Below are positions 32,578 through 45,426 of a stretch of 64,000 nt of DNA, piece by piece. The notes under the pieces are model-generated. The model made no database searches. It was not told the DNA's origin and saw only the letters and a program-made list of their open reading frames with translations. Positions within the stretch are counted from its first letter, which is position 1. Each line of letters starts with the position of its first letter. The DNA comes from an uncultured Candidatus Binatia bacterium (GTDB taxonomy: Bacteria; Desulfobacterota; Binatia; Bin18). Made by a program: the position numbers and the translations under genes. Location: assembly GCA_965200965.1 (NCBI GenBank), contig OZ241744.1, positions 928,001 through 992,000 of the forward strand, read 5' to 3'.

Positions 32578-33411
32578 TTAGTACGCCGCTTCTCGCCGGG
32601 CGATAATCCGGTTCACCAGGGCCAGGTCGGCCGGACTGTCAACATCAATCGCGCACTCGGCAAACGGCATCTGGACAAACGCGATACGCGCCCCAATGAC
32701 CCGCTCGGCCCGTTGTCGGGCGGCTTCGGCGTCAAGTCTGCCCAAGGCCAGCAACACGAAGTTGAGCAGCCCAAAGGTGCTCAGCAAACGCCACGGACGC
32801 TTACGAAACTGTCCGCTGCCGTGCCAGAAGGCCGCGGCAGCCTCGGCACCAGGGCCGGCGCGCAGGACAAAAAGGTTTGTGCCACAAAATCGCTCGCCCC
32901 GGAGCGGAATAAAGCTGCGCGGTGAAGTGGGATAGGAGGCCCGAAAAAGCGACTCGGCCATCACCCCAACAGTCACGTCAGCGTCGCTCGTCCGTGCCGC
33001 CTGACAAAAGTATTCAAGCATGTCCGTCGTCAACAGCGGATGGTCGGCCGTAGTCACCAGCAGCAGGTCTCCGGCGGCTAATTGTCTGAGGTAGCCAAGG
33101 GCGCTGGTGCTGGGCGAGTCGCCCACGGGCGCAAACTGGAGCAGGCCGGCCTCGGCCAGGGTGTGAAGCTCGGCAATAGCCTCCAGACTACCCGGTTCAT
33201 CGGTGCTGACCACAAACCGCCGCACCCCGCACAGAGGCCCAAGGCTGCGCAGCACCCGCGACAACATGGGAATGCCCCGGACCGGCATAAGCGCCTTATG
33301 GCTCCAGCCCGCGGCCTGCGCCAGCGGCTCGCTCGGTCCCCGGCGGCCCGCCAGCACCAGGACGGTCAGATCCGCCCGAGGCGCTTCCTGTGCGGACACT
33401 CGATCGGACAT
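32578..33411 (-). CDS. MobA-like nucleotidyltransferase (CpgC-like)
   Basis: VLAGRRG..HKAL, VTTADHPLL, GTNLF, RKRPW, AIDVD. Confidence 0.8.
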   Translation of the reverse strand: MSDRVSAQEAPRADLTVLVLAGRRGPSEPLAQAAGWSHKALMPVRGIPMLSRVLRSLGPLCGVRRFVVSTDEPGSLEAIAELHTLAEAGLLQFAPVGDSPSTSALGYLRQLAAGDLLLVTTADHPLLTTDMLEYFCQAARTSDADVTVGVMAESLFRASYPTSPRSFIPLRGERFCGTNLFVLRAGPGAEAAAAFWHGSGQFRKRPWRLLSTFGLLNFVLLALGRLDAEAARQRAERVIGARIAFVQMPFAECAIDVDSPADLALVNRIIARREAAY

Positions 33412-33482
33412 GGGGCTATTGTAATCGCTCGTCCAGATTCAACCAGTCCCCTGTGGGGAGATGGCTGTGCCCCTGTCCCAGC

Positions 33483-33511
33483 TTGACGCTGGATTGACTG
33501 CCCCATAGGCT
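33483..33511 (+). promoter_or_regulatory. Putative sigma-70 promoter of the lipid-modification operon
   Basis: TTGACG-17 nt-TAGGCT, 29 nt before ATG 33541. Confidence 0.45.
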
Positions 33512-33540
33512 GGGGGATGTACTGAGAGAAGCCTGGGGAT

Positions 33541-42090: not shown

Positions 42091-42923
42091 GTCTGTTCCA
42101 AGGCTGAAAATGCCACCGCCCGGTCCACCTTGACCTGCCGCTGGACGAACGCTGAGCGAGCCTGCATCAGATCGTCGAGGGTATCAACCTCAGCCCACCA
42201 CAGGCCCGTAATGCTGCTGGTTTCCACCAGGCCGGATTTGGCCAGGGTGTCAATCACCGACAAATACCAGCGCTGCAGGGCGGCCTTGTGGCGAATCGTT
42301 CGATTCAGGGCGGCCCGAAAGGCATCCACCCCCGAGTCGCGAAAGACCATCAGGCCGATGGACTCGCCGTCGGTCTGCTCCGCGGCCAGGGTCTTGCCAA
42401 CTGTAAACAGCCGTCCCTCGCCGCTCAGGCTGACCTTCATATCGTCGTCGTCGTAGCTGGCTTTGCGGTCGATGGCCAAAGTCACCGGAGCGGACGGCGC
42501 GCACAGGACACGCGCTAAAACCTGCGATTCAAACAGTGTATCGCCGTTGAGCAGCACGAAATCTTCGGTCATTTCGGGCACGGCCAGCCAGCAGGTAGCC
42601 AGATTGTTCGAGGCCGCAAAAAATGGATTATACTTGGTCTGGATGTCCAACCCATCGGGCCGACGGGTGGCCAGCAGGGCCTCAATCTGCTCGGCTCCAA
42701 AGCCGACCATCACAATGACCTGCTCCACACCACACGCGGCCAGAGCCTCAAGCTGGAGTTCCAGGATTGTGTGCTCGTCATCTATCGGCAACAGGCATTT
42801 TGGCACACTCTCGGTCAGCGGCAACAGCCGCCGAGCCTGACCAGCACTGAGTATGATTGCCTTCCGCGGCAGCCGCGTATACCAGTCGGCCGCCCCCCCA
42901 TTCCTACCCACTCCATCACGCAT
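42087..42923 (-). CDS. LicC-like cytidylyltransferase (CpgD-like); start uncertain
   Basis: AIILSAGQARRLLPLT..PKCLL, NPFF..NNLATCW, LNGDTLF, YDDDDMKV, GESIG, W.EVD. Confidence 0.85.
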   Translation of the reverse strand: MRDGVGRNGGAADWYTRLPRKAIILSAGQARRLLPLTESVPKCLLPIDDEHTILELQLEALAACGVEQVIVMVGFGAEQIEALLATRRPDGLDIQTKYNPFFAASNNLATCWLAVPEMTEDFVLLNGDTLFESQVLARVLCAPSAPVTLAIDRKASYDDDDMKVSLSGEGRLFTVGKTLAAEQTDGESIGLMVFRDSGVDAFRAALNRTIRHKAALQRWYLSVIDTLAKSGLVETSSITGLWWAEVDTLDDLMQARSAFVQRQVKVDRAVAFSALEQT

Positions 42924-43155
42924 GTGTGTGTTTCAATCCTCACCCAACCCAAAGCCTGGATGCGACGGGGCTGTTTTCCAGGCTGTCCGTCCGGTATAGG
43001 TGAGAACAGTGGGCAAATCAAGCCGCATAACCTCGAGCGGGCGACCGTCGCTCTCTTCCAGAGATATGATTGAGCTCTGCCGGCGACGGGGAGCGGTCTT
43101 CGATGCGGTCCTGGCCTGGCTGGGGAGCGGTCAGCAAGGCTCTCTTGGGTGGACT

Positions 43156-45426
43156 GTGGGTCGGACGCTGCACTGGTATATTGTGCGGGAGTTGCTCCGC
43201 CCTATCCTGCTCGCCTTTGGCGGCTTGACCGTCCTGCTGTTGACCACCGAACTGTTCGGGTTCTCTGATTTAATCATCAACCGCGGCTTTGGACTTGGGG
43301 CGATTATTCGGCTGATCGGCTTCAAGCTGATGGCTCTGGCCCCGACAACCCTGCCTTTTGCCTGCCTCGTCGGTATGCTTGTCGGACTCGGCCGCCTCAA
43401 AACCGACCTGGAAACCCTGGCCCTGCACGCCTCGGGCGTGTCTCAACGCCAGTGTCTTGGTCCAGTGCTGACGTTTTGCGCGGCCGTGACAGCCCTTGGC
43501 CTGCTCCTCAGCCTCAGCGTCTCGCCCTGGGCCAAGCGCGGTCTGGACAGCCTGCAAACACGCCTCGCGCGGGACAACCCGGCCGGCCTGCTGCGGGCCG
43601 GGGAGACACACACCTTTGGGAACACGCGTATTCTGGCGCGTGAGGTCTCAGACGGCGGCGAGCGGCTGAGCGGCGTACTGCTGTGGACCCCACACGTCTC
43701 AGGCGCAAGCTTTCTGGACGGCCAGACGATTTTTGCCCAGCGCGGCGAGGTGCGCTCCAACGGCAACGGCGAGGCGCAGCTGACGCTGTACAAGGGCTTG
43801 AGCCTGTCTCCGATTCGCGGCAGCGGCAACAGTACCCGTTTTGACACCCTGTGGGCATCGCTCCAGTATAGCCGGCCGCCGGCCGCCGCGGCCGGCGATG
43901 AACGACGCGCGGAACACCTGGCCTTCCGGGATGTGGCGCTGCGCGGCTGGCCACGGGACAGCCAGCCCGGAGATGAGCAGTCTGTACGGCTGGCTCAGAC
44001 CGAGTTTCACCGTCGCCTGGCCACACCGGTCGCCAGTCTGGTGTTCGGCCTGCTGGCTCCCCCCCTCGTCCTGCTCGGTCGGACCTTTTCGCGGGCGACC
44101 GGCGGGCTGGCCGGGCTGTTGATTACCGCTGTGTACTACGGCGTGCTCCAGCTTGGCAACGGCCTGATCCAGACCGGGCTTTCTCCCGCCGTGGGTGTTT
44201 GGCTGCCCAATATGCTGGTCGCTGGGATCGCCCTTGTCCTGGTGTCGGTCCAGAGCGGCTGGCCGCGCTGGAGAAACCCCATCGGCCTTTCTCTGGGTCA
44301 ATCGCCCTCCACTGCGATCGGCAATCGGAAAGATCACATCTTAGCGCGCTATGTGGCCCGTTCATACAGCTCTATGCTGCTGGTATCGTTTGGCTTTCTG
44401 TTCACTGGGTATGTTCTGGTTGATGTGCTGGAACGACTCCAGTGGTTTGCCCGCCACCAAGCCGAGTTTGGCGAGATCGTCCGTTTCTACTGTGCCCGCT
44501 CTCCGCTCCTGGCCTCGCGCATGCTTCCCATGTCGCTGTTGTTAGCTACCGCCCTGACCGTGGGGGTGCTGTCGGTCAACAGGGAGCTGATCGGGATGCG
44601 GGCCTGCGGCGTATCGGGGCTCCATGCCCTGAGCCCGATCGTGCTCATTGCCGGTCTGATAGCCCCGGCCTATCTGGTCCTGAACGAAGCGATGGTCCCC
44701 CGCACCAACGCCTGGGCCGACTGGCTCAAAATTACCGAGATCAAGGCTGTGGCGGGCGGGACCCGCCTCCAGCCGCTGGCCCTCTGGCATCAGCACGGCA
44801 AGCTGTACCACACCCGCCAGCTCGATACGATCAACGGACAAGCCCGTGACATCTCGATTTATGAACTTGACGACACCGGCCTGCCGACCAGTCGCACCGA
44901 TGCCCGCTCAGCCCGCCACATTGGCGACGGCCTCTGGGTCTTGACCGATCCCATCCGCCTGGCTGTTCGTGACAGTTCGTTTGAAGTGCTGCCGGCCCCC
45001 CCTCACATCCACCTTGGAACCGAGCCCCACACCCAACTTGACACCATGCACCTCAATGTCCGGCAATTATCCCGGACGATTCGCGACACCGAAGCCGGCG
45101 GCTACGATGCCACGGCCTACCGGGTGGCTTGGCATATGAAGCTCGCCGCCCCGCTGGCGTGTGTGTTCCTGCCGGTGGCCGCCCTCTTCTTCGCCCTCAG
45201 CGGCCCGCCGTTTCCCGGCCCGACCCTGACCATCCTGGTCAGCTGCGGCCTTGGTATCGGTTCAATCCTGCTGAGCGACCTGTTTGCCTCACTCGGTTAC
45301 GGCGGCCATGTTCCGCCCAGTCTTGCCGGCTGGGGACCGTCTGCGGTCCTGTGTCTGCTGGCCGCCGCCCTGGCCGTCCGCAGCCACTCGTTTGAAACCC
45401 TTCCCGGGCCGACCGGTCCCAATTGA
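43156..45426 (+). CDS. Fused LptF-LptG permease
   Basis: Two tandem YjgP/YjgQ units: TLHWYIVREL..E..AL.ASGVS..EFHRR..WLPN, then ILARYVAR..ELIGMRACGVS..KLAAP..AGWGP. Confidence 0.85.
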   Translation: MGRTLHWYIVRELLRPILLAFGGLTVLLLTTELFGFSDLIINRGFGLGAIIRLIGFKLMALAPTTLPFACLVGMLVGLGRLKTDLETLALHASGVSQRQCLGPVLTFCAAVTALGLLLSLSVSPWAKRGLDSLQTRLARDNPAGLLRAGETHTFGNTRILAREVSDGGERLSGVLLWTPHVSGASFLDGQTIFAQRGEVRSNGNGEAQLTLYKGLSLSPIRGSGNSTRFDTLWASLQYSRPPAAAAGDERRAEHLAFRDVALRGWPRDSQPGDEQSVRLAQTEFHRRLATPVASLVFGLLAPPLVLLGRTFSRATGGLAGLLITAVYYGVLQLGNGLIQTGLSPAVGVWLPNMLVAGIALVLVSVQSGWPRWRNPIGLSLGQSPSTAIGNRKDHILARYVARSYSSMLLVSFGFLFTGYVLVDVLERLQWFARHQAEFGEIVRFYCARSPLLASRMLPMSLLLATALTVGVLSVNRELIGMRACGVSGLHALSPIVLIAGLIAPAYLVLNEAMVPRTNAWADWLKITEIKAVAGGTRLQPLALWHQHGKLYHTRQLDTINGQARDISIYELDDTGLPTSRTDARSARHIGDGLWVLTDPIRLAVRDSSFEVLPAPPHIHLGTEPHTQLDTMHLNVRQLSRTIRDTEAGGYDATAYRVAWHMKLAAPLACVFLPVAALFFALSGPPFPGPTLTILVSCGLGIGSILLSDLFASLGYGGHVPPSLAGWGPSAVLCLLAAALAVRSHSFETLPGPTGPN

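Follow-up and report, generated by a model that had tools for sequence, protein, structure and literature searches.

Ten genes lie between der (30843-32255) and adk (45476-46117) in a 64,000-nucleotide stretch of DNA (hereafter the window; positions 928,001 to 992,000 of contig OZ241744.1) from an uncultured Candidatus Binatia bacterium, and they raise the question of whether a member of this lineage builds, decorates and exports an anionic sphingolipid. The original prediction, made from the letters of the window, listed ten contiguous genes here and proposed a phosphoglycerate-headed sphingolipid system resembling that of Caulobacter crescentus. The ten genes are real: the open reading frames (ORFs) are there, and family or fold matches were obtained for every protein type that had been named. 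With three of them on the minus strand the ten genes are not one operon, in GC content they do not differ from the remainder of the window, and a promoter scan was uninformative (2 sites against 2.0 expected by chance). We propose that they are probably the detached second half of a Caulobacter-type ceramide phosphoglycerate (CPG) cluster, which would finish, decorate and export the lipid.

The first half was found elsewhere in the host genome (3.62 Mb on one contig, C1; 99.3% complete), 0.36 Mb from the window, so that spt, bcerS, cerR and cpgB do lie outside it, as had been stated. The genes at C1:1318367-1327979 run in the order bcerS-spt-cerR-desaturase-cpgC-cpgB-cpgA-phosphoesterase and encode a GNAT protein, Spt, an NAD-dependent reductase, a fatty-acid desaturase, CpgC, a DAGK-family kinase, a CDP-alcohol transferase and a metallophosphoesterase; bcerS, spt and cerR are adjacent at C1:1318367-1321832, and cpgC, cpgB, cpgA and the CC_1158 phosphoesterase occupy C1:1323132-1327979 in the Caulobacter order. 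The Pseudomonas luteola orthologues of the Caulobacter sphingolipid genes are tabulated in the supplement of PMC11324152. The bCerS, Spt and CerR of P. luteola find their best genome match at this second locus (38, 38 and 30% identity), as do those of L178, a locus with the Caulobacter gene order, and CpgC, CpgB and CpgA of both. The CC_1153 orthologues of P. luteola and L178, and the P. luteola orthologue of CC_1152, match the window instead. The PDB entry closest to the host Spt is the Sphingobacterium Spt 3a2b (421 bits), entries named only BioF or Kbl scoring 241 bits or less. A search for spt, bcerS, cerR, cpgB and lpx genes had been suggested with the original prediction; all the ceramide genes and lpxC were found, and with spt, bcerS, cerR, cpgA, cpgB and cpgC all in the genome its central proposal holds. 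Besides lpxC, the genome carries a housekeeping lptF/lptG pair outside the window, as well as ORFs read as lpxB, msbA, kdtA and lpxK. The exporter and the LptFG of the window are therefore extra copies.

Relatives of the host join the two loci. In their gene maps cpgC-cpgB-cpgA-phosphoesterase continue directly into CC_1153, an ATP-binding cassette (ABC) exporter, ELM1, cpgD and lptFG. A CpgA alignment served for a pattern scan, the CpgC alignment being too divergent for it. Among 44 genomes of the family, 40 carry a CpgA-type gene and 31 carry the second type found in the window, here called CpgA2. When both are on one contig, they are within about 7 kb of each other in all 19 genomes of other genera and more than 0.3 Mb apart in all five genomes of the window's genus; in three further genomes they are on different contigs. 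Across 33 family loci, each of up to 20 kb and with some absences explained by contig or region ends, ABC was present in 32, CC_1153 in 32, ELM1 in 29, LptFG in 26, CpgD in 25 and CpgA2 in 24, followed by the fused-type GT8 glycosyltransferase (22), the oxygenase (21), GpmA (20), the kinase (20), the GT4 glycosyltransferase (13) and a GT2 glycosyltransferase (8).

Some results for the second locus weigh against this interpretation. The host Spt does not reach the curated cut-off of any NCBIfam Spt model (516 against 640 bits for the Bacteroidota Spt model), and orthology to the Caulobacter genes is bridged through P. luteola and L178. No convincing AasR or AcpR was found in the genome, where the best matches were 24-28% identical to general acyl-CoA ligases, with a weak acyl carrier protein match elsewhere; this fits a Bacteroidota-like Spt using acyl-CoA, as described in PMC11324152.

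Table 1. Genes between der and adk, with positions in the window and the basis of each assignment
Product	Position	Strand	Domain, model or basis
MobA-like nucleotidyltransferase, CC_1153/CCNA_01211 orthologue	32578..33411	-	PF12804
Second CDP-alcohol phosphotransferase (CpgA2)	33541..34770	+	PF01066
RccF-family ABC exporter, half-transporter	34780..36528	+	ABC membrane and ATPase domains
GT8-like GT-A + ELM1/GtrOC1 GT-B glycosyltransferase	36547..38496	+	PF06258 (Mito_fiss_Elm1), 204 bits
GpmA phosphoglycerate mutase, accessory copy	38493..39296	+	NCBIfam NF010713, 305.2 bits (cut-off 305)
2-oxoglutarate/Fe(II) oxygenase	39305..40240	+	PF13640 (2OG-FeII_Oxy_3)
Small-molecule kinase, APH/choline-kinase fold	40023..40841	-	predicted fold; longest ORF start 40967
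GT4 glycosyltransferase	40795..42090	+	PF00534, PF13439
CpgD, CTP:phosphoglycerate cytidylyltransferase	42087..42923	-	NTP_transferase; CpgD residues
Fused LptF-LptG, second copy, 808 aa	43000..45426	+	TIGR04407 and TIGR04408 above cut-off

Which of the window proteins would make the head group is suggested by conserved residues and by the best genome matches. The cytidylyltransferase is 49% identical (236 bits) to the P. luteola CC_1152 orthologue, and twelve CpgD residues described in PMC13228409 map onto it by spacing, with offsets of 15 to 18: G28, R32, K42, N107, T110, N126, G127, D128, M162, K177, S188 and W219. All 48 CpgD orthologues of the loci retain the glycerate-binding N107, N126, M162 and K177, and 44 of the 48 retain S188; the glycerate-binding residues are replaced in two other nucleotidyltransferases of the same genome, which served as paralogue controls. 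On the strength of these residues we identify the protein as CpgD. The best PDB sequence match of the same protein is LicC (46 bits), and the kinase fold resembles LicA, which would suit a LicC-, capsule- or O-antigen-type locus unrelated to sphingolipids; the 236-bit match, the retained glycerate-binding residues, the contiguity with cpgABC in relatives and the ceramide genes in the genome all argue the other way. We rejected this explanation, which is largely refuted and very improbable. The original prediction had named an absence of ceramide genes together with LicC-like enzymes as the outcome that would speak against it; ceramide genes and a CpgD with its glycerate-binding residues were found.

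The first gene of the set had been likened to CpgC and the CDP-alcohol phosphotransferase to CpgA, and these two likenesses did not survive, since the orthologues of both are at the second locus; the likeness to CpgD did. CpgC is described as a Tam41-like protein, and the CpgC profile has a single genome match, at C1:1323135, and none in the window, so the first gene was rejected as CpgC. It is the best and only genome match of the CC_1153 orthologues of P. luteola (37% identity, E 4e-40) and L178 (38%), which identifies it by sequence as the CC_1153 orthologue; CC_1153/CCNA_01211 is reported to be needed for ceramide diphosphoglycerate (CPG2) in Caulobacter. CpgA2 falls in a clade apart from CpgA, together with the second copies of a Diaphorobacter plasmid and of genome G394 (SH-aLRT 100), in a quick IQ-TREE tree built on 55 of the 119 candidate rows. 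The CpgA of P. luteola shares 40% identity with the second-locus copy and 32% with CpgA2. CpgA2 was thus rejected as the CpgA orthologue and is classed by the tree as a separate CpgA paralogue.

The window GpmA has the RHG and AHGNS motifs. Because two metal-dependent mutase-family genes are also present in the genome, we regard it as an accessory copy, and a role as the sole housekeeping mutase was rejected. CpgD prefers D-2-phosphoglycerate (PMC12275187), and gpmA also occurs inside an unrelated cpg locus (L047). GpmA is likely to supply 2-phosphoglycerate to CpgD.

How the lipid would cross the inner membrane is suggested by the ABC exporter, in which Walker A, signature and Walker B are intact. 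Over 565 aa it shares 51% identity with the ABC protein encoded next to spt in Desulfoprunum benzoelyticum, and the two form one clade (support 99) apart from the genome's own MsbA. A putative MsbA-like transporter, RccF, is named in 29 ceramide clusters, D. benzoelyticum among them (PMC11789144), and the association of this ABC with ceramide genes is therefore already in print. Through the bridge of the D. benzoelyticum protein, the window ABC is assigned by sequence to the RccF family. Its transmembrane part has a match in 41 of the 50 genomes reached through CpgA loci; among 30 matches that were fetched, 12 directly adjoin spt and 15 adjoin some pathway gene at a distance of up to 1.5 kb. 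An even sampling of the window's phylum (301 genomes) gave 15 with both ABC and CpgC, 2 (the weakest matches) with ABC only, 5 with CpgC only and 279 with neither. The link is looser in 401 Pseudomonadota genomes (both 8, ABC only 5, CpgC only 15, neither 373); that 5 of these 13 ABC carriers are without CpgC counts against the proposed pathway, and 10 of the 15 with CpgC only carry the CC_1166-type flippase.

ABC and the CC_1166-type flippase appear to exclude one another. In 80 selected genomes, ABC was found in 51, a strong match to the flippase in 13, both in 0 and neither in 16; these genomes are related and were chosen for CpgA, CpgC or ABC, several of the 16 are fragmented, and 3 of the 13 flippase carriers had built the flippase profile. 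Sharper evidence than this either-or count comes from position: in three non-alphaproteobacterial genomes without ABC (G050, G060 and G073), the flippase directly follows spt, the place held by ABC elsewhere. The host genome has only a weak, unlinked match to the CC_1166 type (67 bits, against at least 193 for family members). A role of CC_1166 as a flippase is only suggested in the 2024 paper, and the parts consulted of a 2026 preprint on LptF2G2 (bioRxiv 10.64898/2026.04.12.717747) name no flippase. No publication describing the either-or pattern, or a bacterial sphingolipid flippase that had been tested, came up in our literature search. Two of the 16 genomes with neither ABC nor the CC_1166-type flippase encode a MATE-like membrane protein in the locus, between lptG2 and bcerS (L161, 14591-16114; L165, 3753-5270), and this is possibly a third flippase type.

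The same ABC could instead flip an undecaprenyl-linked oligosaccharide, made by the glycosyltransferases, in the manner of PglK, with the glycan then transferred in the periplasm to ceramide or some other acceptor. Among NCBIfam models it scores highest with the HepA family (268 bits, below the cut-off), genes for its more distant relatives are found in polysaccharide clusters, surrounded by glycosyltransferase and sugar genes, and the alternative CC_1166 family is itself a polysaccharide-flippase family. ABC is kept, however, where no glycosyltransferase is linked (genomes G002 and G022 and many spt-ABC operons), and the window showed no recognisable gene for a ligase, an initiating phosphoglycosyl transferase or a GT-C enzyme. 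We therefore consider an oligosaccharide flippase decidedly unlikely and predict from these comparisons that the window ABC is probably the inner-membrane flippase of the sphingolipid.

What is exported would depend on the GT8-ELM1 protein, GT4, the kinase and the oxygenase, which together are a variable tailoring module. The GT8 part of the window protein has no Pfam match, and the alignment profile of GT8-ELM1 found nothing below E 0.01 among PDB sequences. Its fold was seen in a model of a same-family homologue, P0190, 71% identical in the GT8 domain: residues 50-254 resemble the GT8 structure 3tzt (Z 16.9, root-mean-square deviation 2.6, 185 aligned), WbbM (Z 15.9) and LgtC (Z 15.1), and residues 460-831 have a GT-B fold (Z 16.2). 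The D-x-D motif is invariant in the GT8 domain. Loci of other lineages (L032-L035, L037, L038, L041, L048 and L051-L054) have an extra domain of about 200 aa between GT8 and ELM1, which gives only a weak Methyltransf_25 match (E 0.0099) and is by sequence probably methyltransferase-like; the window's genus has lost this middle domain.

The kinase ORF has no Pfam or NCBIfam match. Its model (pLDDT 92.2, 92 sequences) has LicA 4r7b as top Foldseek match (E 3.7e-7), and K48, D173, N178 and D192 are invariant in 92 homologues. Relatives of 257-306 aa indicate that it probably starts near 40841 or later, and the real start of GT4 is probably later than the first position of its ORF. The kinase is paired divergently with a glycosyltransferase, GT4 or GT2 being present in 19 of the 20 kinase-bearing family loci; GT2 replaces GT4 in some relatives. 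In the 33 loci, kinase and CpgA2 occur together in 12, kinase alone in 8 and CpgA2 alone in 12. A LicA-like kinase supplying a precursor to CpgA2 was consequently rejected, the two not being coupled, which also sets the locus apart from the LicABCD phosphocholine system. Pairing with GT4 or GT2 and the lack of coupling to CpgA2 make phosphorylation of a sugar the better fit than precursor supply.

The oxygenase has an HxD...H motif and matches PDB 9ei6 (E 6e-11). Wherever it occurs in the family loci it stands alongside GT8/ELM1, and an LpxO-like hydroxylase, echoing it, often neighbours ELM1 in gammaproteobacterial loci. Owing to a C-terminal extension of about 75 aa, its gene shares 218 nt with the kinase gene on the opposite strand; within the set of close relatives that was compared, this extension is found only here and in G007, most others having 235-258 aa. 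In L036, L038, L039, L040 and L042, genes for a sulfotransferase or a TylF-type methyltransferase stand in for parts of the module, which suggests that head groups vary among the relatives.

A rival explanation concerns the substrate of this module. CpgD, the CC_1153 orthologue, CpgA2 and LptFG might act on the sphingolipid, with GT8-ELM1, GT4, kinase and oxygenase inserted as a module that tailors the core of lipopolysaccharide (LPS) or some different surface glycan. Synthesis of the LPS core typically involves GT8 enzymes and sugar kinases. The one studied bacterial ELM1 protein, 2903 of Acinetobacter baumannii, acts on the lipid A core, being needed for KdoIII/GlcNAcA transfer to lipooligosaccharide (LOS) (PMC10936431), and the host has lipid A genes and makes lipid A. 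The module is moreover optional: the same-genus genome G002 has none at the corresponding locus, an ELM1-ABC-GT8-GT4-oxygenase block in G748 is unlinked and distant from any sphingolipid gene, and the GT8-ELM1 fusion was found in only 5 of 57 long CpgA loci outside the family. Set against this, ELM1 with or without GT8 lies within spt/cpg loci of four distant lineages, alpha-, beta- and gammaproteobacteria included. The same fusion occurs in such loci of P. luteola, P. duriflava, P. serbica, P. umsongensis and plasmid pPNP1, and ELM1, often with GT8, in the loci of four Pseudomonas species and of G537 and on plasmids of Pseudomonas, Diaphorobacter and Roseomonas; the annotated stretches of the three ELM1-bearing plasmids are without a lipid A core biosynthesis cluster. 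In the family the module is always embedded between ABC and cpgD/lptFG. An inserted LPS-type module is therefore an unlikely explanation, and we lean towards the tailoring enzymes acting on the sphingolipid rather than on LPS. No report of ELM1 in sphingolipid loci was found in the literature searched. Caulobacter vibrioides also carries an ELM1-family protein; none is described in its sphingolipid region in the sources consulted.

The last gene encodes two LptF/LptG domains in one frame, and because the fusion recurs across the family it is not an assembly artefact. The separate housekeeping lptF/lptG pair is at C1:3433534-3435797, and a motif search found one LptB-like ORF in the genome. In a quick tree of 56 rows with long branches, the G half joins the housekeeping LptG of its own broad lineage (SH-aLRT 96) and the F half is unplaced; FastTree put the two halves with the genome's own pair (support 94/96). 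LptFG copies of beta-, gamma- and deltaproteobacterial loci join the housekeeping proteins of P. luteola (100), and alphaproteobacterial copies stand apart. The expectation that the window LptFG would be a paralogue of the Caulobacter type was not supported in this quick, long-branched tree, as it did not group with alphaproteobacterial LptF2/G2. By its sequence it is probably an independent duplicate and not LptF2/G2, and the trees lean to repeated independent duplication of sphingolipid LptFG. A motif check of the LptF/G coupling helices gave no match and was not used. With PF03739, the only lptF/lptG pair found in Nitrosomonas europaea ATCC 25978 (G082, the genome of L115) was that of its sphingolipid locus, and in G016 nothing but the fused copy was found; in these genomes LPS and sphingolipid may share a single transporter, unless a housekeeping pair was missed. 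A second, housekeeping-type fused LptFG is found at G030:C1:776079-778295, in another family of the class, apart from that genome's own sphingolipid locus.

These results can be arranged in a pathway. By analogy with the characterised Caulobacter orthologues, Spt, bCerS and CerR would make ceramide, which CpgB would phosphorylate to ceramide-1-phosphate before CpgC gives CPG. The window GpmA would supply 2-phosphoglycerate for conversion to CDP-glycerate by the window CpgD, and CpgA with the CC_1153 orthologue would give CPG2. From this analysis it is very probable that the CPG head-group core is made by this genome's enzymes. Gene context further suggests that CpgA2 may add another phospho-alcohol unit, that GT8-ELM1 and GT4 may add sugars, that the kinase may phosphorylate the sugar placed by its partner transferase and that the oxygenase may hydroxylate the lipid or the glycan. 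The RccF-type ABC would then act as flippase for the product at the inner membrane, and its extraction to the outer membrane, in parallel with that of LPS, would fall to the fused LptFG working with the shared LptB. All of this taken jointly, namely that the lineage makes a previously undescribed glycosylated, phosphorylated and hydroxylated LPS-like CPG whose sugar head is built by GT8-ELM1, GT4 and a kinase, that the RccF-family ABC is the flippase in beta-, gamma- and deltaproteobacteria, Nitrospirota and Binatia and is interchangeable with the CC_1166 type, and that sphingolipid-dedicated LptFG arose independently at least three times from housekeeping copies, is a tentative proposal to which we give somewhat less than even credence.

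The nearest described system is the ceramide (di)phosphoglycerate region of C. crescentus, CC_1168-CC_1152 (CCNA_01226-01210; PMC11324152, PMC12275187, PMC13228409). As described there, it shares with the host spt, bcerS, cerR, a cpgC-cpgB-cpgA-phosphoesterase run in the same order, CC_1153, cpgD, an extra lptF/lptG and retained housekeeping LPS genes. Unlike that region, the cluster is split into two loci in the window's genus; the host has a Bacteroidota-like Spt, and no convincing aasR/acpR, HIT match or CC_1166-type flippase was found in it. It adds the ABC exporter, CpgA2, GT8-ELM1, GT4, kinase, oxygenase, accessory gpmA and fused LptFG. The ABC family is that of the RccF proteins of roseoceramide-like clusters, linked to ceramide genes across phyla, but in the window it stands beside head-group and glycosyltransferase genes and not beside spt. 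The passages on RccF in PMC11789144 propose no flippase test and make no comparison with CC_1166, and its Table S11 is without Binatia. Caulobacter LptF2/LptG2 extract sphingolipid using shared LptB (bioRxiv 10.64898/2026.04.12.717747) and, like the window genes, are an additional LptFG copy placed in a sphingolipid locus, a single LptB having been detected in the host genome; unlike them, the host copy is a single fused polypeptide whose G half goes with housekeeping LptG. With A. baumannii 2903 (PMC10936431) the window protein shares the PF06258 GT-B domain of a probable glycosyltransferase, and unlike that LOS-core protein it is fused to GT8 and embedded in sphingolipid loci.

The description of the system as new stands for the variant and not for its parts, since sphingolipid LptFG paralogues (bioRxiv 10.64898/2026.04.12.717747) and RccF (PMC11789144) are already in print. 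The core pathway is known and the exporter family named; what the locus contributes is a flippase swap that can be tested, a second CpgA, a head group predicted to be glycosylated and a new lineage. The crossing of the inner membrane by bacterial sphingolipids is an open step, for which the either-or distribution of ABC and CC_1166 and their shared position provide a concrete candidate. With this locus the known range of the anionic sphingolipid pathway reaches a probable Ca. Binatia lineage. It also predicts a head group more elaborate than that of CPG2 and opens a way to find out what ELM1 proteins do in bacteria. No report of sphingolipids in Binatia or Binatota was found in the literature searched, although the taxonomic survey of Stankeviciute et al. 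2022 could include the lineage.

Near-complete sphingolipid clusters were also seen on plasmids (L048 4863-25218, L049 18982-40398 and L050 1-20798). L048 is Pseudomonas pPNP1, near intI1/sul1, with a bcerS that BLAST shows to be interrupted by an insertion sequence; L049 is the conjugative Diaphorobacter pDCB2, with nonribosomal peptide synthetase, P450 and phosphopantetheinyl transferase genes inside the cluster; L050 is from Roseomonas mucosa. In the host, copper monooxygenase genes resembling amoA/pmoA and amoC/pmoC, below curated cut-offs, lie about 6.5 kb from bcerS-spt (G000:C1:1310057-1311868; L002 58-1869); such genes suit a Ca. Binatia lineage, the label that NCBI gives to close homologues, and membership of the class is thus probable. 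Upstream of der, the window contains at 26231-30259, as read by eye, an ORF for a 1021-aa DNA methyltransferase-like protein and a HicB-like ORF, in a patch of lower GC.

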